DNA of 60,144 nucleotides from Candidatus Methylomirabilota bacterium (GTDB lineage: Bacteria; Methylomirabilota; Methylomirabilia; Rokubacteriales; CSP1-6): NCBI GenBank assembly GCA_036002345.1, contig DASYTM010000034.1, positions 1 through 60,144 of the forward strand, read 5' to 3'. The number at the start of each line of letters is the position of its first letter. The stretch's first letter is position 1. A program made the position numbers and the translations under genes. A model generated the notes under the pieces. It saw only the letters and a program-made list of their open reading frames with translations, ran no database searches and had not been told where the DNA came from. Shown piece after piece: positions 5,044 to 25,535 of the stretch.

Positions 5044-6201
5044 ATGACGCAGACGGCCGAGGTCGTGATCGTGGGCGCCGGGATCATGGGTGCGAGCACC
5101 GCGTACCACCTGGCGCGGCTCGGCGTGGGGCGGGTGGTCGTATTAGAACGCGATACGATATGTTCCGGTTCCACGGCCCTCGCCAGCGGCGGCATCCGCC
5201 ACCAGTACGCGAACCGCCTGGGTGTCGAGCTGACCACGCACAGCATCGTCACGTACGAGCGGTTCCAGGACGAGTTCGGCGTCGACCCGCAGTTCCGGCG
5301 GCACGGCTATCTCATCCTGATCGCGACGGAGGACGAGCTGGCCGTGGCGCGGCGGAGCGTCGCGCTCCAGCAGAGCCTCGGCGTGAGCGTCGAGCTCCTC
5401 GACCCGGCGGCGATCCGCGCGCTGTGCCCGTATCTCCACACCGGCGATCTGCTCGGCGCGACCTACACGCCGCGTGACGGCTACGCCGACCCGTACCTGT
5501 GCGCGACGGCGATCGCCGCCCGCGCGCGTGACCTCGGCGTGGACATCCGGCAGCAGCACGAGGTGCGCGGCTTCATCCGCCACGGCGATCGCGTGACCGG
5601 CGTGACGACCTCCGACGGCGCGTTCGAAGCGCGCGCCGTCGTGATCGCGACCGGGGCGTGGTCAGGCGGCGTCGGCACGCTCGCGGGCGTGGACATTCCC
5701 ATCCGCCCGCACCGGCGCCACAAGTTCATGACCGCGCCGTTTCCGATGGATCAGATCCCGGCCGCCACGCCGTTCGTCATCGACCCGCACAGCAATTTCT
5801 CGCTGCGCCGCGAGGGCGTGGGGCTGCTCCTCGGCCACGGCCGTCGCGACGAGCCCGACAGCTTCAGCACCGAGATCGACCGGAGTCTCGAGCCCGGCGT
5901 GGTCGAGCGCGCGATCCACCGCGCGCCGGTCCTGGCCGACGCCAAGCTGATGCGCGCATACGCCGGCCTGTACGAGATGACGCCGGACCAGACCGGCATC
6001 GTCAGCGCCGTCCCCGGTGTGGCCGGGCTGCACGTCATCGCCGGGTTCAGCGGTCACGGCTTCATGCACGGCCCGATCGCCGGCCAGCTCATGGCCGAGA
6101 TGCTGGTGCACGGCCGCGCCGTCACGATGGACGCCGGCCCGCTGGACATGGCGCGCTTCGCGCGCGGCGAAGCCCACGTGGAGCCGCTGACGTTCGTGTA
6201 A
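5044..6201 (+). CDS. FAD-dependent oxidoreductase (DAO family; sarcosine/glycine oxidase-like)
   Basis: 385 aa. N-terminal Rossmann motif VVIVGAGIMGASTAYHLA...VVLER. C-terminal GFSGHGFMHGP is typical of the DAO family. Confidence 0.9.
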   Translation: MTQTAEVVIVGAGIMGASTAYHLARLGVGRVVVLERDTICSGSTALASGGIRHQYANRLGVELTTHSIVTYERFQDEFGVDPQFRRHGYLILIATEDELAVARRSVALQQSLGVSVELLDPAAIRALCPYLHTGDLLGATYTPRDGYADPYLCATAIAARARDLGVDIRQQHEVRGFIRHGDRVTGVTTSDGAFEARAVVIATGAWSGGVGTLAGVDIPIRPHRRHKFMTAPFPMDQIPAATPFVIDPHSNFSLRREGVGLLLGHGRRDEPDSFSTEIDRSLEPGVVERAIHRAPVLADAKLMRAYAGLYEMTPDQTGIVSAVPGVAGLHVIAGFSGHGFMHGPIAGQLMAEMLVHGRAVTMDAGPLDMARFARGEAHVEPLTFV

Positions 6202-6214
6202 TAGACCGGCGCTG

Positions 6215-6877
6215 TCAAACGGGCCAGGTCTCGCAGCGCAGACCCATGTCCCAGAACATCCACTCGTAGCGGCTCGTCGTCATGAAGTGCTGGCGCATCG
6301 TCTCGCGCTCGGCCTCTGACAGCGAGCCGGCAAGCGTATCGGTCGCGTCGAGGACGGCGCGGACGATGCGGCCGAACTCGTCGGACGCATAGGTGCCGAT
6401 CCAGCGCGCGTAGAGCGGGTCGGGCGAGCCGCGGCGCTCCAGCTCCTTGCCGACCTCCCAGTAGATCCAGTAGCAGGGCAGGAGCGCCGCGACGGCCTCG
6501 TGAAACGGCCGCCCGTACGCGACGGCCAGCAGGTACGACGTGTACGCGGCGTTGGTGGGTGCCAGCGGCGTGGCCAGCACGTCCTGGGGCGTCAGGCCCC
6601 ACTCGGCAAAGAAGCCCTCGTGCAGCGCGCGCTCGACCCTCAGCGCGCCGGCGGCGTGCTCGTTGAACATGATGATCCACTCGTCACGGGGCGCGCGCGC
6701 CGCCGCGATGGCCAGCGAGCGCGCGAAGTCGCGCAGGTAGAGGGCGTCCTGCACCGCGTAGAAGCGGAAGCTCTTCTGCGGCAGCGAGCCCTCGGTGAGG
6801 CCGGCCACGAACGGGTGCTTCAGGATCGCGACGTAGATCGACTCGATCGAGGCCCACAGCTCGGTAGTGAAGGGCAT
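6215..6877 (-). CDS. tenA: TenA/thiaminase II family protein
   Basis: 220 aa. HPFVAGLTEGSLPQKSFRFYAVQDALYLRDFAR and PCYWIYWEVG motifs are typical of the TenA/PqqC-like haem-oxygenase fold. GGGAGA SD. Confidence 0.8.
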   Translation of the reverse strand: MPFTTELWASIESIYVAILKHPFVAGLTEGSLPQKSFRFYAVQDALYLRDFARSLAIAAARAPRDEWIIMFNEHAAGALRVERALHEGFFAEWGLTPQDVLATPLAPTNAAYTSYLLAVAYGRPFHEAVAALLPCYWIYWEVGKELERRGSPDPLYARWIGTYASDEFGRIVRAVLDATDTLAGSLSEAERETMRQHFMTTSRYEWMFWDMGLRCETWPV

Positions 6878-7895: not shown

Positions 7896-10213
7896 CGCCG
7901 CGCGCCCGCGATCCAGTGCGCGAGGTTCTTCGCCGACAGCGGCAGCTCGCGGACCGTCACGCCGAGCGGCGCCAGCGCCGCCGCCACGGCGTTGGCGGCG
8001 GCCGCGCCGGTGGCCACGATGCCGCCCTCGCCGGCGCCCTTGGCGCCGAGCGGATTCGACGTGGAGGGCGCGTCCTCCAGCGTGATGGACTCGAGGCTCG
8101 GAAAATCCGCGGCGGTGGGCAGCGCGTAGTCGGCCAGCGTGCCGGTGACGAGCTGGCCCGTCTCGTCGTACACGAGCGCCTCGAGGAAGGCGCCGCTCAG
8201 CCCCTGCACGGCCGCGCCGTGGGCCTGGCCGTGGACGAGCGCGGGGTTGATGACGCGGCCGACGTCCTCGACGGTCACGAGCCGCAGCACCTCGGTGGCA
8301 CCCGTCTCCGGATCGACGGCGACGTGCGCGACGTGAGCGCCGTACGTGTACGTGAGCGCGGTCGTCGTGAACTTGCCGACGGCTTCGAGCGCGGCCGCCG
8401 CCTCGGGCGAGCCTTCCGCCGCGAGCGTCGCCAGCGCCAGCACAGTGGTGCCGTCGCGGCGGACGACGTCGCCGCCCCGACACGTGAGCGCGCTCGTATC
8501 CAGGCCCGACCGTTTCGCGGCGAGCGCTATGATCTGGCCCTTCAGCGTCTCGGCGGCCGCCGCGACGGCGCTGCCGCCCACGACGACGGCGCGGCTGTGA
8601 TAGGTGCCCCAGCCCTCGGCGACGTGGGTGGTGCTGCCGTGGAACACGCTGATCCAGTCGAACGGGATCGCGAGGGCGTCGGCGAGGATCTGCGCCATCA
8701 CCGTCTCGTGGCCCTGTCCCGACGAGGCGCAGCCGCTGTAGAGCTCGACGCGCTCGGGCCCGCGGACGACGATGCGCGCGGTCTCGGCGGGGCCCGCGCC
8801 GCTCGACTCGACGAAGCAGCCGATGCCGACGCCGCGCCGCCGGCCGCCGATCAGCCGGCCATTGTCTTTCGCCAGGCGCGCGTAGTCGCTGGCCTCGAGG
8901 GCGCGGCGGAGCGCGGCGCCGTAGTTCCCGCCGTCGTAGGCGCCGGAGGCTTCGTACGGGACGAGCGAGCCGATGGTCCACGGCAGCTCGGCGGGCGTGA
9001 GGAGATTTCGCTGGCGAACCTCCGCGGCGTCGAGGCCGAGATCGGCGGCCATCAGGTCGATCAGCCGCTCGCGGAAGAAGTTGGCCTCGAAGCGCCCCGG
9101 CCCGCGATACGTCCCCGTCGGCGTCTTGTTCGTGACGACGGCCTGCACCTCGCACGCGAAGTGCGGGATGCGGTACGGGCCGGGCAGGAACTGCGCCGCT
9201 TTGGCCGGCACCACGCCGCCGTTGGTGCGGACGTAGGCCCCCATGTCGGCGAGCACGCGTCCGCGCAGGCCGCGAATGGTGCCGTCGGCGTCCGCGGCGA
9301 TCTCCAGCTCGCACTCGATCTCGCGCGAGTGATTGGCGGCCACGAAATGCTCGCGCCAGTCCTCGATCCACTTCACCGGACGGCCGAGGCGCATGGCCGC
9401 GAGCGGGATCAGGAGATCCTCGGGATAGAACTCGCCGCGCACGCCGAAGGAGCCGCCGACGTCCACCTCGAGGAGCTCGATGCTCGCCTCGTCCAGGGAC
9501 AGCATCCGTGCCAGCGCGCGCCGGTTGAAGAACGGCACCTTGGTCGCGCCCCGCACGGTCAGCCGGCGGGCCGTCGCGTCCCACGCCGCCACCAGGCCGC
9601 GCGTCTCGAGCGGCACGCCGCTGTGGCGCTGGCATCGGAACGTCTCGCGGCGCGTGTACGCCGCGCCGGCGAAGGCGGCGTCGGGGTCACCGCGCGACAC
9701 CCGGTAGCGGGTCGCCACGTTGGTGCCGGTCGCCTCGTGGACCAGGACGCGGTCGGCCAGCGCGTCGCGCGGGTCGACCACGGCGTCGAGCGGCTCGTAC
9801 GCCACCGTGACGCGCTCCGCGGCGTCCTCGGCGACGTAGCGGTCCTCCGCCACCACGAGGGCCACCGGCTCGCCGACGTAGCGCACGCGGTCGCGCGCGA
9901 ACGGCCACTGCAGATAGCGATCGAACCCGGGGAGCGGGGCGAGCCGCATGGGGATGGGCGTGCCGACGTCTGCCAGGTCGGCGGCGGTGAGCACGGCGAG
10001 CACGCCGGGCATCTTCAGAGCGGCCGCGGTGTCGATGCCGGTCAGGCGCCCGTGCGCCACGGCGCTGCGCACGACCACGGCGTGCGCGTGCGCGGGATCG
10101 GCGAGGTCGGCGACGAAGCAGCCGCGGCCGGTGAGGAAGCGCGCGTCCTCGCTGCGGCGGACGGCCGCGCCCACGAGGCGCCCGCGGGCTGATGCGCGAT
10201 CGTCCCGTCCCAT
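7892..10213 (-). CDS. Xanthine dehydrogenase/aldehyde oxidase/CoxL-family molybdopterin-binding large subunit
   Basis: 773 aa. Opening RLVGAAVRRSEDARFLTGRGCFVADL, TGTYRGPGRFEANFF and SGQGHETVMAQI motifs are characteristic of Mo-hydroxylase large subunits. Confidence 0.9.
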   Translation of the reverse strand: MGRDDRASARGRLVGAAVRRSEDARFLTGRGCFVADLADPAHAHAVVVRSAVAHGRLTGIDTAAALKMPGVLAVLTAADLADVGTPIPMRLAPLPGFDRYLQWPFARDRVRYVGEPVALVVAEDRYVAEDAAERVTVAYEPLDAVVDPRDALADRVLVHEATGTNVATRYRVSRGDPDAAFAGAAYTRRETFRCQRHSGVPLETRGLVAAWDATARRLTVRGATKVPFFNRRALARMLSLDEASIELLEVDVGGSFGVRGEFYPEDLLIPLAAMRLGRPVKWIEDWREHFVAANHSREIECELEIAADADGTIRGLRGRVLADMGAYVRTNGGVVPAKAAQFLPGPYRIPHFACEVQAVVTNKTPTGTYRGPGRFEANFFRERLIDLMAADLGLDAAEVRQRNLLTPAELPWTIGSLVPYEASGAYDGGNYGAALRRALEASDYARLAKDNGRLIGGRRRGVGIGCFVESSGAGPAETARIVVRGPERVELYSGCASSGQGHETVMAQILADALAIPFDWISVFHGSTTHVAEGWGTYHSRAVVVGGSAVAAAAETLKGQIIALAAKRSGLDTSALTCRGGDVVRRDGTTVLALATLAAEGSPEAAAALEAVGKFTTTALTYTYGAHVAHVAVDPETGATEVLRLVTVEDVGRVINPALVHGQAHGAAVQGLSGAFLEALVYDETGQLVTGTLADYALPTAADFPSLESITLEDAPSTSNPLGAKGAGEGGIVATGAAAANAVAAALAPLGVTVRELPLSAKNLAHWIAGARR

Positions 10214-10302: not shown

Positions 10303-11109
10303 ATGGATCTCCAGCTCACCGGCAAAGTGGCGCTCGTGACGGGCGCCAGTCTCGGCATCGGCAAGGGCATCGCGCGCGTGCTGGCGCGCGAGGGGTGCGA
10401 CGTCGCGATCTGCGCGCGGCGCAAGGACGTTCTCGAGGCGGCGGCGGAGGAGATCCGCAAGGAAACGGGGCGCAAGGTGCTGGCGATCCCCGCGGACCTG
10501 ACGCGCCGCGAGGACGCCGAGACCTTCGTGAACGGCGCCGCACGGCACTTCGGGCGGATCGACATCCTCGTCAACAACGCCGGCTCCGCGCCCGGCGGAA
10601 TTCTGGAAGCCCTCGACGAGGACGCGTGGCAGCAGGGGCTGCAGCTCAAGTTCATGGGCTACGTGCGCTGCCTGAAAGCGGCCCTGCCGATCATGAAGGC
10701 CCAGGGCGGCGGGCGCGTCGTCAACCTCATCGGCAACGACGGCGTGAAGGAGTCCTACTGGGAGATCGTGCCCGGCGCGTGCAACGCCGCGGGCCAGAAC
10801 CTGACCAAGGCGCTGGCCGGCCAGTACGCCCGCAACAACATCACCCTCGTGGCCGTGAACCCGGGCCCCGTGCGCACCGAGCGCTGGGATGGCCTCGTGA
10901 AGGCGATGTCGCGCGACATGAAGATCCCCTACGCGGAAGCGGACAAGCTCGCCCCGCGCAGCATCCCGCTCGGGCGCATCGCCGAGGTGGAGGAGTGCGC
11001 CAACCTCGTCGCCTACCTCGCCTCACCGCTCGCGCACTTCGTCAACGGCTCGATGATCGAGATCGACGGCGGCCAGCAGAAGCCGCTGATGGACGCCGCG
11101 CGCGGCTGA
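10303..11109 (+). CDS. SDR family oxidoreductase
   Basis: 268 aa. TGASLGIGKGIA cofactor motif and NNAG motif. GAGGTG SD. Confidence 0.9.
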   Translation: MDLQLTGKVALVTGASLGIGKGIARVLAREGCDVAICARRKDVLEAAAEEIRKETGRKVLAIPADLTRREDAETFVNGAARHFGRIDILVNNAGSAPGGILEALDEDAWQQGLQLKFMGYVRCLKAALPIMKAQGGGRVVNLIGNDGVKESYWEIVPGACNAAGQNLTKALAGQYARNNITLVAVNPGPVRTERWDGLVKAMSRDMKIPYAEADKLAPRSIPLGRIAEVEECANLVAYLASPLAHFVNGSMIEIDGGQQKPLMDAARG

Positions 11110-11635: not shown

Positions 11636-11788
11636 CTAAGCGAAGTAGCGGGCGAGCCGGCGCGAGGCCTTGGCCTGCCAGTCCTCCGTAGTATCGAGGA
11701 ATCCGTCCCAGCGCGTCGAGTCTTTCTTCTTCTTCTTCTTGGCGTTCTTCGCCTTGGCGTTGAGCTCGCCCTCGATGGCGCGGAAGCG
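11636..11788 (-). other. In-frame, coding-like 50-codon extension downstream of the TGA stop of the 11789-12472 gene
   Basis: Same frame as the upstream ORF. Reads RFRAIEGELNAKAKNAKKKKKKDSTRWDGFLDTTEDWQAKASRRLARYFA-TAG. About 90% G/C at third codon positions. No internal ATG, GTG or TTG start. Confidence 0.4.
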
Positions 11789-12472
11789 TCAGCTCGGAAG
11801 ACCGTTGTGGCGCTGGGCCGCCGGTACCATCGCGAGGAACGCGTCCCCGGCGGGCAGCGTCCCGCCCGCGCGGAAGCCGAAGCGCGCGTCGTCCACGAGC
11901 GGCGTGAGCGCGATCCGCCCGTCGCGTCGCGCGCCGACGAAGCTCACGTTGAGGGCCGGCACGCGGACCTCGAAGTACTCGGCCGGGTCCCGGCTCTCCT
12001 GCCGCGCGAGCCGGTCCCGCGTGGCGTCGAGCAAGGCTCCGTAGCGTGGGGCGCCGTACGAGGCGACGTTCCAGCTCGTGCCCCGGCGCTCGACGGTGAG
12101 CGCGGAGCGCGTGGCGTTGGCCACGCGCACGGGGAACGTCATGCGGTGGTTCGGGTGGAGCAGCGGCAACGGATCGTGGCCGCGCTGGAACGCGCGCAGT
12201 TCATCGAGCCGGACCATGAATTCCGGCAGCGGCGGGCCGAGCACCGCGGAGCGCACCTCGTCGGGCCGCGTGAACCCCATGGCCTGGAAGTTCTCCCGCG
12301 TCACGAGCTGCGCGAACGACGTCAGCCCGTTCTGGGCGGCCTGGGTCGCCGCGCGCATGTCGGCGGGCGTCACCGGCTGCGCGGGCGCCGCCGGCCGCTG
12401 CGGCTGGGCCTCCGTGACCGCGGACGCCACGAGGCACGCGAGACCACCGAACCAGATCGCCGTGCGTCGCAT
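11789..12472 (-). CDS. Secreted protein of unknown function
   Basis: 227 aa. Signal peptide MRRTAIWFGGLACLVASAVTEAQ. No recognisable domain. 12 nt downstream of the peptidase gene. Confidence 0.7.
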   Translation of the reverse strand: MRRTAIWFGGLACLVASAVTEAQPQRPAAPAQPVTPADMRAATQAAQNGLTSFAQLVTRENFQAMGFTRPDEVRSAVLGPPLPEFMVRLDELRAFQRGHDPLPLLHPNHRMTFPVRVANATRSALTVERRGTSWNVASYGAPRYGALLDATRDRLARQESRDPAEYFEVRVPALNVSFVGARRDGRIALTPLVDDARFGFRAGGTLPAGDAFLAMVPAAQRHNGLPS

Positions 12473-21781: not shown

Positions 21782-22828
21782 ATGCACTTCGGACTGTTCG
21801 TGGAGGAGATGCGGCAAGGGGTCAGCCAGCCGGCGGCCTTCCGCGACGTCTTCGACCTGGCCGACCGCGCCGACGAATGGGGCATGGACTGCGTCTGGCT
21901 CGGCGAGATCCACTTCACGCCCACGCGCTCGGTGATCTCCGCCTCGCTCCAGGTGGCGAGCGCCATCGCGGCCCGGACCAAGCGTGTCCGCGTCGGCACC
22001 GCCGTCCAGGTCCTGCCCCTGAACCATCCGCTGCGCATCGCCGAAGAGGTGGCGACGGTCGATCACATCAGCCAGGGGCGCTTCGAGTTCGGCATCGGGC
22101 GCAGCGGCGTGGTCCGGACCTACGACATCTACGGCGTGCCGTACGGCGAGAGCCAGGCGCGCTTCCGCGAGGCGCTGGAGATCATCCGCCAGGGGTGGAA
22201 GGGCGAGCCGTTCGACTACGAGGGCCAGTTCTATCGCGTGAAGAACGCCATCGTGACCCCGCGCCCGTACCAGGACCCGCATCCGCCGATCCGCATGGCG
22301 ACCACGAGCGACGAGACGTTCCCCGCCGCCGGCGCGATGGGGCTGCCGATCTTCGTCGGCCTGCGCACCACGGAGATCCCGGACTTGCAGGCGCAGCTCG
22401 CGCCGTACCGTCAGGCGTGGCGCGAGGCCGGCCATCCCGGCCAGCCCAGCGTCTACCTGAGGATCCCCGTCTACGTCTCGCCCACCGCGCGCGGCGCGGT
22501 GGAAGAGCCGCGCGCGAGCCTGACCGCGTTCTTCGCGCGGCAGACCGAGCTGGCGCGCGCCGCCGTCGGCCGCGCGGGCGCCGGGCCCGCCGACCGCCGC
22601 CGCATGCAGGCCGAGCGCATGGCGAGCCTGACCTACGACGACATCCTCGCCAGGAAGGTCGCGTTCGGGACGCCGGCGGGCGTGATCGAGCGCCTGAACC
22701 ACCTGCGGGACGAGCTGGGCCTCGACGGCATCGTCGCCGAGCTGAATCCCGGCGGGCTCATCCCGCCGGAGCTGGAGACGCAAAGCCTCCGGCTCCTCAC
22801 CCACGACGTGCTGCCGGTGTTCCGGTGA
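21782..22828 (+). CDS. LLM class flavin-dependent oxidoreductase
   Basis: MHFGLFVEE opening, then GMDCVWLGEIHF and RVRVGTAVQVLPLNHPLRIAEEVATVDHISQGRFEFGIG. Confidence 0.85.
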   Translation: MHFGLFVEEMRQGVSQPAAFRDVFDLADRADEWGMDCVWLGEIHFTPTRSVISASLQVASAIAARTKRVRVGTAVQVLPLNHPLRIAEEVATVDHISQGRFEFGIGRSGVVRTYDIYGVPYGESQARFREALEIIRQGWKGEPFDYEGQFYRVKNAIVTPRPYQDPHPPIRMATTSDETFPAAGAMGLPIFVGLRTTEIPDLQAQLAPYRQAWREAGHPGQPSVYLRIPVYVSPTARGAVEEPRASLTAFFARQTELARAAVGRAGAGPADRRRMQAERMASLTYDDILARKVAFGTPAGVIERLNHLRDELGLDGIVAELNPGGLIPPELETQSLRLLTHDVLPVFR

Positions 22829-23982
22829 TGCTGATCCTCTCGTCCGACTCGCACGTCTTCGAGCCGCCCGACCTCTGGGCCAAGCGGATCGACGCGGCGT
22901 TCCGCGACCGCGCGCCGCGCCTCGTGCGGATCGACGGCGCCGACCAGATCGTGATCGAGAAGGACCAGGTCCTCTCCGGCATCGGCCTCATCTCGAACGC
23001 GGGCGCGCGGTTCGAGGCGCCGGAAACGATCTCGGGGCGCGCGCGCTTCGAGGACGTTCACCGCGGCGGCTGGGATCCCGAGCAGCACCTGGCCGACATG
23101 CGGCTCGACGGCGTGGCCGGCGAGGTGCTCTACCCGTCGCAGGGGCTCTTCTACTTCCGGGTCGCCGACTCCGCGTTGCAGGCGGCGATCTTCCGCGCCT
23201 ACAACGACTGGCTCGCCGAGTTCTGCAGTGTAGATCCCGCCCGGCTCAAGGGCATCGCGATGATCAGCATGGACGACGTGCCGGCCGCGATCCGCGAGCT
23301 CGAGCGCACGGCGCGGCTCGGCCTCGCCGGCGCCATGATCACGGAGTACCCCCTCGAGGACCGGCGCTACGACCAGCCCGAGTACGAGCCGTTCTGGGCC
23401 GCCGCGGAATCACTGGCCATGCCGCTCTCGCTGCACACGGCCACGCGGCGCCAGGGCCGCATCCGCGGCGCGCCGGGGCAGACGCTCCGCGACGCCTCGA
23501 GCCGCGCGACCAAGATGATCGGCCCCGCCGTCTCGCTGTGCGACATGATCTTCTCGGGCGTGTTCGAGCGCCATCCGCGGCTGACGCTGGCCATCGTGGA
23601 GTTCGAGCTGTCGTGGGCGCCACACCTGCTCGACACGATGGACTACACGTACCGCGAGCGCCACGAGGAGGCGATCTACCGCTTCAAGGACGCGATGCGG
23701 CCGAGCGACTTCTTCCACAAGAACGTCGTGCTGAGCTTCCAGGAGGACGCCCTCGGCATCCGCCTGCGTGACGTGATCGGCGTGGACAACATGATGTGGG
23801 GGTCGGACTATCCCCACAGCGAGTCCACCTTCCCGCAGTCGCGGAAGATCCTCGCCGAGATCCTGGCCGGCGTGCCCGAGGGCGAGCAGGCCAGGATCGT
23901 CGGCGCCAACACCGCGCGCGTCTACCGCTTCGACGCGCCGCGGCTCGCCCTTATGCCGGATCGATCCCCACGATCTCGTTGA
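22828..23982 (+). CDS. Amidohydrolase_2 family protein
   Basis: MLILSSDSHVFEP opening, then YNDWLAEFC and MWGSDYPHSEST. TGATG overlap with the preceding LLM gene. Confidence 0.85.
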   Translation: MLILSSDSHVFEPPDLWAKRIDAAFRDRAPRLVRIDGADQIVIEKDQVLSGIGLISNAGARFEAPETISGRARFEDVHRGGWDPEQHLADMRLDGVAGEVLYPSQGLFYFRVADSALQAAIFRAYNDWLAEFCSVDPARLKGIAMISMDDVPAAIRELERTARLGLAGAMITEYPLEDRRYDQPEYEPFWAAAESLAMPLSLHTATRRQGRIRGAPGQTLRDASSRATKMIGPAVSLCDMIFSGVFERHPRLTLAIVEFELSWAPHLLDTMDYTYRERHEEAIYRFKDAMRPSDFFHKNVVLSFQEDALGIRLRDVIGVDNMMWGSDYPHSESTFPQSRKILAEILAGVPEGEQARIVGANTARVYRFDAPRLALMPDRSPRSR

Positions 23983-24469
23983 ACCGGCCCCACCCGATGT
24001 AGAGCGTCGTGTGCGCGACGAGCTCGATGATCTCCGCCTCGGAGAAGTGGCCGCGCAGCTCGGACCAGAGCGCCTCGTCCACCTTCTGGTGATCCACGGC
24101 GAGCTTCTCCGCGAATCGGATGGCGACCCGCTCGCGCGGGCTCAGGAGATCCGAGGACTCGTCGTTGATCGCCGCGATCTTCTCTTCCGTCGCGCCTGCA
24201 TGCCGGGCCCCGGCATAGCGGACGGTGAGTCAGTAGCGGCAGGCGTTGAGCCCGGCGATCTTGATCCTCACCAGTTCGCGCAGCACCGGGTCGATGGTGC
24301 CCTCGCGCGCCAGCGCGCCGCGGTAGGCCGCCAGTGCCTTGAACACGGCGGGATTCTTCGCGTAGGTCCGTGGTCCCGTCGAGGTCCCCGTCTGCTTTAG
24401 GGCGTCCTCGCAGAGATGGCGGACTTCGGGGTCGACCTGCTCGATCGGCAAAGGCGTGATCCTCGCCAT
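23951..24469 (-). CDS. Carboxymuconolactone decarboxylase/AhpD-like family protein, probable selenoprotein (UGA at 24230-24232 read as Sec, CxxU)
   Basis: ORF 24230-24469 ends ...RIKIAGLNACRY-TGA. The same frame continues LTVRYAGARHAGATEEKIAAINDESSDLLSPRERVAIRFAEKLAVDHQKVDEALWSELRGHFSEAEIIELVAHTTLYIGWGRFNEIVGIDPA-TAA (23951-23953), which is typical CMD-domain sequence. The TGA sits where the family has the second Cys of C-x-x-C. AAGGAG SD upstream. Confidence 0.7.
24194..24223 (-). promoter_or_regulatory. SECIS-like stem-loop downstream of the in-frame UGA
   Basis: On the mRNA: UGA-N13-AUGCCGG-GGC-CCGGCAU (perfect 7-bp stem, 24200-24216). It can be extended by further G-C pairs with a bulged U. 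Apical-loop G residues lie 21-22 nt after the UGA. Confidence 0.5.
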
Positions 24470-24482
24470 CGGCGTCTCCTTC

Positions 24483-24869
24483 TCAGCTCGGGATGCAGGC
24501 GGTCACGGTGATCTCGATGAGCAGATCGGGCGAGTTCAGCGTCGCCACGGTCACCGTCGTCCGCGCCGGCTTGTTCGTCGGGAAATACTTCGCGTACTCC
24601 TCGTTGTAGGCGGCGAGGTCCTGCACGCGCGTCAGGTACGTCGTCGCCGTCATCACGTTGTCGAGCGACGTGCCCGCCGCGGTCAGGATCGCCTTGATGC
24701 GCTCCAGGATGTTGCGCGTCTGCTCGCGGATGTCCTTGCCGACCTCGCCCGAGACGGGATGGCGTCCCGTCTGGCCGGAGACGAACACGAGGTTGCCGAA
24801 GCGCGTGGCCGGCGACAGGTTGGGGTTGGGCTTGGCGGCATCGACTCCGATGACCTCTTTCTTGGGCAT
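24483..24869 (-). CDS. RidA/YjgF family reactive-intermediate deaminase
   Basis: 128 aa. Reads PATRFGNLVFVSGQTG...TTYLTRVQDLAAYNEEY...PARTTV...IEITVTA. Confidence 0.9.
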   Translation of the reverse strand: MPKKEVIGVDAAKPNPNLSPATRFGNLVFVSGQTGRHPVSGEVGKDIREQTRNILERIKAILTAAGTSLDNVMTATTYLTRVQDLAAYNEEYAKYFPTNKPARTTVTVATLNSPDLLIEITVTACIPS

Positions 24870-24908
24870 GGGTCACCTCACGGAGGGGGAGTATAGTCCT
24901 GACCCATG
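24867..24908. repeat. 9-bp perfect inverted repeat CATGGGTCA-N24-TGACCCATG containing both divergent start codons
   Basis: Read directly. The arms cover the RidA start (24867-24869) and the start of the tandem-barrel gene (24906-24908). Confidence 0.6.
24892..24897 (+). promoter_or_regulatory. -10-like TATAGT, 8 nt upstream of ATG 24906 (leaderless candidate)
   Basis: TATAGTCCTGACCC-ATG. Confidence 0.35.
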
Positions 24909-25535
24909 GCGAAAGGGATCCTGATCGCGGCGATGAAGATCGGCCGCGCGGCCGAGGACGAGTTCCACGACTGGTACGACACCGAGCACCTGCCCGAGCG
25001 CCAGCGCGTGCCGGGCTTTCTGCTCTGCGAGCGCTGGCTCGGCGCCGAAGACCGCACGGTCTCCGTCGCCACCTACGACCTCGCGACGCTCTCGGTCATG
25101 CAGAGCCCGGGCTACCTGGCCATCGGCGGCGAGAACCTCTCGCCGTGGTCCAAGCGCGTGACGGCGAAGGTCGAGCGGCTGATGCGCTTCGAGGGCGAGC
25201 AGATCCTGCCCGGCGACGCGCTGCCGCCCGCGGGCGCCGGCGGGCTCCTGCTCAACGCGATGAGCATCGCGCCCGCGCTGGAGGCCGAGTTCAACGAGTG
25301 GTACGACAAGGAGCACATTCCCGCCCTGGCCGCCGTGCCCGGCGTGCTCAGCGCGCGCCGCTTCCGGGGCACGGGCAACCGCAAGTACGTGGCGCTCTAT
25401 CATCTCGAGCGTCCGGACGTCGTGGCGTCCGAGGAGTGGAAGAAGGCGCGGACGAGCGACTGGACGAGCCGGCTCCAGCCGCAGTTCCGCGACCACCTGC
25501 GCCTGGTGCTCCGCCGCTACGCGCGCGGCCGGTAG
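24906..25535 (+). CDS. Tandem-repeat ferredoxin-like (dimeric alpha/beta-barrel, EthD/DUF4286-like) protein
   Basis: 209 aa with two internal repeats, each carrying EDEFHDWYDTEHLPERQRVPG or EAEFNEWYDKEHIPALAAVPG. The family assignment is tentative. Confidence 0.65.
   Translation: MAKGILIAAMKIGRAAEDEFHDWYDTEHLPERQRVPGFLLCERWLGAEDRTVSVATYDLATLSVMQSPGYLAIGGENLSPWSKRVTAKVERLMRFEGEQILPGDALPPAGAGGLLLNAMSIAPALEAEFNEWYDKEHIPALAAVPGVLSARRFRGTGNRKYVALYHLERPDVVASEEWKKARTSDWTSRLQPQFRDHLRLVLRRYARGR

Follow-up and report, generated by a model that had tools for sequence, protein, structure and literature searches.

The stretch of DNA analysed here, hereafter the window, comprises 60,144 nt of contig DASYTM010000034.1 from a Candidatus Methylomirabilota bacterium, and our subject is a minus-strand gene within it that is a candidate for a selenoprotein gene. 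Its open reading frame (ORF) starts with an ATG at 24469-24467 and, 79 codons later, after the residues ...GLNACRY, encounters a TGA (24232-24230). The frame past this TGA stays open for 92 further codons, up to a TAA at 23953-23951. The interruption falls inside a protein domain: the Pfam profile of the carboxymuconolactone decarboxylase (CMD) family, PF02627, matches residues 40-121 with 69.3 bits (cutoff 23), extends over positions 1-83 of its 84 and bridges the TGA, and the halves on either side each cover by themselves just half of the profile. The features of the locus are collected in Table 1.

Past the TGA no in-frame start occurs before a GTG at codon 125, so that residues 81-124 have no separate route of expression. 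The public gene call of an identical JGI contig consists of a 79-aa piece and a 48-aa piece, the latter beginning at GTG codon 125. An earlier, sequence-only reading of the window had described the 79-aa ORF, its 92-codon extension with the peptide it encodes and the terminal TAA; coordinates and translation all agree with ours. The same reading held that no alternative start follows the TGA, which is right for codons 81-124 and fails at codon 125. It also placed the TGA at the second Cys of a C-x-x-C motif, giving C-R-Y-U, and this is borne out by the Cys homologues described below, which align a Cys at the TGA column.

Table 1. Coordinates of the features at the locus (positions in the window)
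Feature	Position	Strand	Remarks
RidA/L-PSP gene, upstream	24483..24869	-	Pfam PF01042, 103 bits
Shine–Dalgarno sequence AAGGAG	24476..24481	-	6 nt 5′ of ATG 24469-24467; sequence inspection
Predicted selenoprotein coding sequence	23951..24469	-	172 codons + TAA; single-domain AhpD-like/CMD; selenocysteine (Sec) = residue 80
Relay Glu E65	24277-24275	-	12 residues ahead of C77; PA0269 alignment
Redox motif C77-R78-Y79-U80 (TGC CGC TAC TGA)	24230..24241	-	
Predicted Sec codon UGA (U80)	24230..24232	-	in place of second Cys of C-x-x-C
Extended hairpin, window variant only	24187..24225	-	CCGUC 24225-24221 with GACGG 24191-24187; CGCU with GGCG
Core of the predicted selenocysteine insertion sequence (SECIS)	24197..24220	-	short helix, bulged U, 7-bp helix, GGC loop
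Short helix CGC/GCR	24220-24218 with 24199-24197	-	third pair is a C.A mismatch in the window sequence
Bulged U	24217	-	between short helix and 7-bp helix
7-bp helix	24216-24210 with 24206-24200	-	
Apical loop GGC	24209-24207	-	20 nt from UGA

Conservation of the TGA and of the frame beyond it

Orthologues were sought among 5.8 billion proteins and by a genome scan with one genome per species. The protein search returned dozens of ~95-aa fragments which either end in ...NACRY or start just past that point, as the sequence-only reading had anticipated when it stated that annotation would truncate the gene. Three database proteins of 172 aa (P0001-P0003) appear 'full-length' and read CRYW. Since the DNA behind one of them has TGA at the W position, the W at this column represents a TGA called under another genetic code (code 4), and Trp was rejected as a genuine residue. 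Arg was rejected as well, the CGA concerned being on an error-ridden contig (ENA ERZ25039531 contig_87831, positions 5790-6611; L002) on which the orthologue also shows CGT for CGC in the short helix of the hairpin and a downstream frameshift.

The genome scan yielded 43 close relatives with 71-84% identity, nearly all in metagenome-assembled genomes (MAGs) of Candidatus Rokubacteria/Methylomirabilota. A TGA at this site was found on 49 contigs, which together give 46 distinct coding sequences (CDSs). Counted from ATG codon 1, these full-length orthologous CDSs (all fetched loci) have TGA at codon 80 without exception (46/46). The coding sequence beyond the TGA is likewise conserved in all 46; the position of the stop is shared in 41 and differs near the 3′ end in the others. 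In 11 orthologues the true stop of the gene is itself a TGA. In pairwise comparisons the ratio of non-synonymous to synonymous substitution (dN/dS) averages 0.214 over codons 2-79 and 0.175 over codons 94-172, and this low downstream value indicates that the segment behind the TGA is translated in frame under purifying selection.

Further away, at ~40% identity, the TGA is still present at this column in a Deltaproteobacteria MAG (L050) and a Pseudomonadales MAG (L051), where the motif reads CDT-TGA and CFT-TGA, respectively. In the 19 more distant genomic homologues the codon is TGC or TGT and belongs to a C-x-x-C motif, and the proteins P0063, P0068 and P0070 also show C-x-x-C at the site. 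A Cys at the TGA column in homologues had been proposed as a check of the sequence-only reading, and both these 19 genes and the structurally characterised protein PA0269 have one. No Cys-containing orthologue above ~45% identity turned up among the 5.8 billion proteins, and judging from these sequences Sec appears to be fixed in the Rokubacteria clade.

Two kinds of side observation belong to this set of orthologues. Close orthologues with 77-80% identity also occur in MAGs that carry other labels (L013, L016, L022, L028, L029, L031 and L035), namely Nitrosocosmicus (an archaeon), Acidoferrum, Verrucomicrobiia, Dormiibacterota, Gemmatimonadales and Limnocylindria. The contigs are mostly short, 4-24 kb, the Limnocylindria one (L031) having 97 kb. 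Because gene and SECIS are near-identical to those of the clade, these contigs are probably mis-binned Rokubacteria rather than instances of horizontal transfer. The other observation concerns two 145-aa orthologues, P0005 (L076, positions 319-756) and P0004, with an exact in-frame deletion of 81 nt. It is flanked by the short direct repeats AAGATCGCCGC / AAGRTCGCGGC, each encoding K-I-A-A, and takes out C-x-x-U, the TGA and the entire hairpin. Since the two junctions differ, the deletions could be recurrent natural events or slippage artefacts across the G+C-rich hairpin.

The hairpin downstream of the TGA

Thirteen nucleotides after the UGA the transcript can form a perfect 7-bp hairpin, AUGCCGG-GGC-CCGGCAU (24216-24200, minus strand), whose loop G residues lie at 21-22 nt. 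The minimum free energy (MFE) fold of the UGA with the following 45 nt has −24.8 kcal/mol. In the family as a whole the recurrent structure consists of a 3-bp helix (CGC/GCG), a bulged U, the 7-bp helix and the GGC loop, and the lower stem beneath this core varies among orthologues and is not conserved. Hairpin, 13-nt gap and apical G residues read exactly as they had been given earlier, and the extension with a bulged U that had been proposed at the same time corresponds to U 24217 between the 7-bp stem and the short CGC/GC(G) helix.

The hairpin is part of the coding sequence, in which codons 84-90 (R-Y-A-G-A-R-H) read CGC TAT GCC GGG GCC CGG CAT. Codons 85-90 are the same in 46/46 CDSs and codon 84 in 45/46. 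Elsewhere in the gene Tyr and His are mostly encoded by TAC and CAC, and the hairpin keeps the rare TAT and CAT; synonymous diversity at other Ala, Gly and Arg codons amounts to 0.3-0.6. Accordingly low is the proportion of synonymous differences (pS) in the hairpin core, 0.044 compared to 0.386 and 0.369 in the flanks.

The distant relatives L050 and L051 have wholly different stems of 7 bp (ACGCGUC and UUCCAUC, respectively) and retain the GGC loop, the preceding U and the 20-nt distance to the UGA. In an alignment of 37 sequences 97% of the cells are paired, compared to 21-40% after a shift of the 3′ partners by 1-3 columns. Changes on both sides were observed in 7 of 10 pairs, including 6 of the 7 upper-stem pairs, and none of 500 shuffles reached the observed values. 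The GGC loop and the bulged U are invariant (37/37 sequences). The hairpin is present in every TGA-bearing gene examined and in none of the 19 Cys homologues, in which the best stems have 2-6 bp at scattered positions.

The archetypal bacterial SECIS elements are those of E. coli fdhF and fdnG, which are bound by SelB. Their hairpin lies within the CDS, directly 3′ of the UGA; a U bulges out of its 5′ strand beneath a short upper helix, and the small, GGUC-containing apical loop opens with G residues ~20 nt from the UGA. The window element resembles them in its position within the CDS, the bulged U, the leading G residues of the loop and the ~20-nt loop distance. It has no sequence similarity to them, its own make-up being a GGC triloop on a G+C-rich helix of 7 bp.

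According to a published consensus, bacterial SECIS elements have a loop of 3-9 nt, an upper stem of 4-16 bp, a G in the first two loop positions, a distance of 16-37 nt from the UGA and an MFE of −7.5 kcal/mol or lower (PMC13188914). The window element falls within all of these bounds: its GGC loop of 3 nt opens with GG and lies 20 nt from the UGA, its stem has 7 bp and its MFE is −13.4 kcal/mol. The geometry of a bacterial SECIS, which the sequence-only reading had seen in the single hairpin, agrees with the consensus, and the hairpin also shows frozen synonymous sites and compensatory changes.

Decoding of the TGA

TGA is the commonest ordinary stop codon in the window, terminating 15 of 22 long ORFs, that of RidA included, so that any recoding has to be local rather than genome-wide. 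Reassignment under code 4 or 25 was rejected on this stop-codon usage. A crude scan of the window for other genes with an in-frame TGA gave no convincing candidate. On a 1.98-Mb Rokubacteria contig (L006) a gene of the UGSC family lies 1.4 kb from the AhpD-like orthologue (11733-12254, minus strand), with TGA at the position of U (~11978; ...VSGVGD-U-GSCSSSS...). Its score with NF041046, 'UGSC family (seleno)protein', is 144 bits (cutoff 125), and ~19 nt past the UGA there is a 7-bp stem capped by a GUG triloop. The arrangement is thus like that in the window, a UGA followed at a similar distance by a 7-bp stem and a triloop starting with G. The protein family is unrelated, and there is no copy of it in the window. 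Gene callers divide the UGSC gene into pieces of 92 and 68 aa. A literature search for Rokubacteria together with selenocysteine or sel genes gave no relevant match. At the level of the phylum, a 2026 review counts 63 predicted selenoprotein genes in one Methylomirabilota MAG (PMC13188914), and Sec-type [NiFeSe] hydrogenases have been described in Methylomirabilota (PMC13582414). The UGSC gene and these reports of a Sec-rich phylum count in favour of a selenoprotein.

From these data we consider it very probable that the gene codes for an AhpD-like (CMD-fold) selenoprotein with one domain and 172 residues, and that UGA-80 is read as Sec via the SECIS hairpin. The sequence-only reading had called it a probable selenoprotein, and the conserved TGA with its downstream frame, the Cys column and the evolution of the hairpin all lend support to that view. 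Judging from its anatomy, the mRNA hairpin, which starts 10 nt past UGA-80, would act as a bacterial SECIS during translation and recruit SelB.GTP.Sec-tRNA(Sec) to the ribosome. UGA-80 would then be decoded as Sec rather than as a stop, with UGA terminating normally elsewhere in the genome.

A number of observations weigh against a selenoprotein. Neither ARAGORN, run on the window and 34 loci, nor tblastn with E. coli SelA, SelB and SelD, run on the window and ~1.1 Mb of related loci, found tRNA-Sec or these proteins. Rfam gives no match here, to a SECIS or to any other family, at either gathering or permissive thresholds. Taken as a single sequence the fold has a z-score of −1.54 relative to shuffles, which is not significant, and in a window of 70.7% GC 1.9% of all positions have a perfect 7-bp hairpin of suitable geometry downstream; since the single sequence does no better than chance, the case for the hairpin is built on the comparison across sequences, and there the compensatory changes stem from just two independent distant lineages. 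A single orthologue (L002) has CGA for TGA and is frameshifted, on a contig full of split genes; that many of its neighbouring genes are split too suggests an error-prone assembly or a decaying copy. The two deletion variants have lost both motif and hairpin. Finally, no curated selenoprotein equivalog or subfamily model was passed: the protein scores 82.2 bits with NF053654, a YciW-related (seleno)protein family (cutoff 310), 56.6 with TIGR01926, peroxidase-related enzyme (cutoff 81.8), 27.4 with NF041047, the GSU3128 family (cutoff 110), and 15.5 with NF041238, AhpD_rel_CFYUT (cutoff 175).

Some candidates from these searches were discarded. The lone tblastn match (L066) is an unrelated GTPase. 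ARAGORN also reported a 90-nt 'tRNA-Pro(cgg)' at 10877-10966 of another locus (L039), 360 nt downstream of the orthologue, which was dismissed as a probable false positive as it has no Rfam tRNA support. At 9898-9988 of the same locus, just 5′ of the orthologue start, there is a long near-perfect hairpin, the source of spurious weak matches to microRNA models.

The fragments given by gene callers, the decayed copy with CGA and frameshift and the occurrence of deletion variants would all be expected if the TGA were a nonsense mutation or a sequencing or assembly error that truncates the protein at residue 79 and leaves the downstream part dead. The same TGA, however, recurs in 46 distinct CDSs from many samples and assemblers, together with a conserved hairpin, and the frame behind it is mostly intact to a shared stop with the dN/dS of a selected sequence. 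These conservation data in effect refute a pseudogene or an error, to which we attach hardly any probability. Insertion of a standard amino acid (Trp, Cys, Gly or Arg) at UGA-80, through a reassigned code or near-cognate read-through stimulated by the hairpin, would accord with the Trp of the public code 4 calls P0001-P0003 and with the missing Sec machinery in the 60-kb window and the ~1.1 Mb of related loci. It is at odds with TGA being the commonest true stop in the window and ending this very gene in 11 orthologues. The residue, moreover, is a redox Cys site of C-x-x-C at which only Cys or Sec makes chemical sense, the hairpin has the geometry of a SelB-type SECIS, a relative carries a gene of the curated UGSC selenoprotein family on the same contig as its orthologue (L006), and the phylum is reported to be rich in Sec (PMC13188914). 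We therefore regard a standard amino acid at this position as very improbable and retain Sec.

Protein fold, chemistry and gene context

The protein passes the AhpD core model TIGR00778 (35.8, cutoff 27.8) and has the Glu-x11-Cys-x-x-Cys arrangement as E65-x11-C77-R-Y-U80, with Sec for the second Cys. By sequence the closest solved structure is PA0269 of Pseudomonas aeruginosa (PDB 2O4D/2IJC/7XW1), with E = 3e-17 for 2O4D compared to E = 2e-3 for the debrominase Bmp8. PA0269 has a relay of Glu36, Cys48, Tyr50, Cys51 and His55 and a weak thiol-dependent peroxidase activity (PMC3141380). Its Cys48-Ala-Tyr50-Cys51 aligns with C77-R-Y-[TGA], so that Glu36, Cys48, Tyr50 and Cys51 are the equivalents of E65, C77, Y79 and U80. 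The window protein differs in having Sec rather than Cys, an extra N-terminal segment of ~35 residues and, four residues past the second Cys, Arg84 at the site of His55. This relay His (His137 in Mycobacterium tuberculosis AhpD) is invariant among solved AhpD-like structures (PMC3141380). The Arg is invariant in all 46 CDSs and occurs also in L050-L055 and P0063.

The fold was taken from the AlphaFold model of an orthologue, P0001, with Trp in place of Sec. The model (pLDDT 89, pTM 0.83) shows an all-helical AhpD-like fold. Its top Foldseek match is Bmp8 (6OHI, TM 0.83), with 2OYO, 2PRR and 6K40 at TM 0.77-0.80 and PA0269 at 0.68-0.71 (0.82-0.86 when normalised to the target); further matches include Mlr4105 and several 'peroxidase-related' proteins.

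AhpD-like CxxU selenoproteins first came to light in the Sargasso Sea and Global Ocean Sampling metagenomes and are among the more abundant bacterial selenoprotein families, listed as 'AhpD-like 1' (COG2128) and 'AhpD-like 2' (pfam02627) (PMC2398784); the sequence-only reading rightly referred to this arrangement as a documented one. A catalogue of 2026 has entries for an 'AhpD-like protein' (TIGR01926) and a 'CMD-like protein' (PF02627) (PMC13188914). These families share with the window protein the CMD/AhpD fold, a C-x-x-U with Sec in second position, widespread Cys homologues and a SECIS right after the UGA. The window clade differs in that it comes from soil and sediment Rokubacteria rather than marine samples, in falling below the TIGR01926 cutoff, in the Arg at the relay-His site and in having no Cys orthologue above ~45% identity. 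The best-scoring curated selenoprotein model is NF053654, 'GroundWater_YciW', a Sec/Cys family with the same domain that matches residues 1-157. At 82 bits against the 310 required the window protein is not a member, and L050 and L051 fail likewise with 44-45 bits.

By homology, C77-x-x-U80 would form a selenenylsulfide redox centre at the start of an α-helix, with U80 at the position of the reactive second Cys and E65, twelve residues upstream, placed as in the proton relay of AhpD and PA0269. By analogy with these proteins the product is most likely a peroxidase-related thiol/selenol oxidoreductase that would reduce peroxides or a peroxiredoxin-type partner. The replacement of the relay His by Arg84 tells against taking peroxidase chemistry as assured. 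A selenoprotein with another chemistry on the CMD fold, for instance a Bmp8-like reductive dehalogenation or the reduction of some other electrophile, would suit this invariant Arg, the first rank of Bmp8 among the structural matches, the oxygenases and hydrolases rather than AhpC in the neighbourhood and the fact that PA0269 itself is just a weak peroxidase. The sequence similarity to PA0269 and 'peroxidase-related' proteins is nevertheless far above that to Bmp8, E65, C77 and Y79 agree with the PA0269 relay, and the variable gene context offers no substrate clue. On balance a non-peroxidase chemistry seems unlikely to us, and the peroxidase-related oxidoreductase is preferred. With still more reserve one may imagine that the Rokubacteria clade is a functionally distinct branch of AhpD-like selenoproteins, with Sec fixed and Arg for the relay His, whose chemistry might be a selenol-driven reduction of non-peroxide substrates such as a Bmp8-like dehalogenation, and that its invariant 21-nt SECIS might stem from an unusually strict rule of SelB recognition. 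If dehalogenation were true, the clade protein would be a bacterial analogue of the Sec-dependent deiodinases.

The stop codon of the RidA gene (TGA 24485-24483) lies 13 nt before the ATG of the predicted selenoprotein gene, with the AAGGAG directly past it (24481-24476), and the two genes are probably co-transcribed. The sequence-only reading had called them operonic; the adjacency and the Shine–Dalgarno sequence at the RidA stop hold for the window, but RidA is found directly upstream in the nearest relatives only (the window, L007 and L008) and not family-wide. On the other side an Amidohydro_2 gene on the plus strand (22828-23982) converges on the predicted selenoprotein gene, and the 3′ ends of the two share 32 nt (23951-23982). 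Genes nearby encode a luciferase-like monooxygenase, 2-oxoglutarate-Fe(II) and TauD dioxygenases, a DUF4286 protein and an NMT1-type ATP-binding cassette transporter. At 24906-25535 (plus strand) a divergently transcribed gene encodes a protein of 209 aa with a weak DUF4286 match (29 bits, C-terminal half), and this DUF4286-like protein adjoins RidA also in L007 and L033. Other orthologues adjoin MoaD/ThiS and xanthine-dehydrogenase-type genes or a uracil phosphoribosyltransferase (UPRTase) gene. Because the neighbours vary in this way among orthologues, the context gives no clue to function or substrate.

The kind of protein is already known, AhpD-like CxxU selenoproteins having been described since 2005-2008, and our understanding of Sec decoding and of AhpD-like enzymes is unchanged by the finding. 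What is distinctive in this clade, which no curated equivalog captures, is its Rokubacterial origin, the Arg in place of the relay His and the exceptionally invariant SECIS core. Its value lies first in annotation, given the dozens of ~95-aa half-proteins and the few Trp mistranslations in public collections. If UGA-80 is read as Sec, as we think very probable, annotation has overlooked a conserved selenoprotein of 172 aa in no fewer than 46 Rokubacteria/Methylomirabilota assemblies. The selenoproteome of this soil and groundwater phylum, which a recent report describes as exceptionally rich in selenoproteins, would thereby gain a well-supported member with a very clean example of a SECIS.

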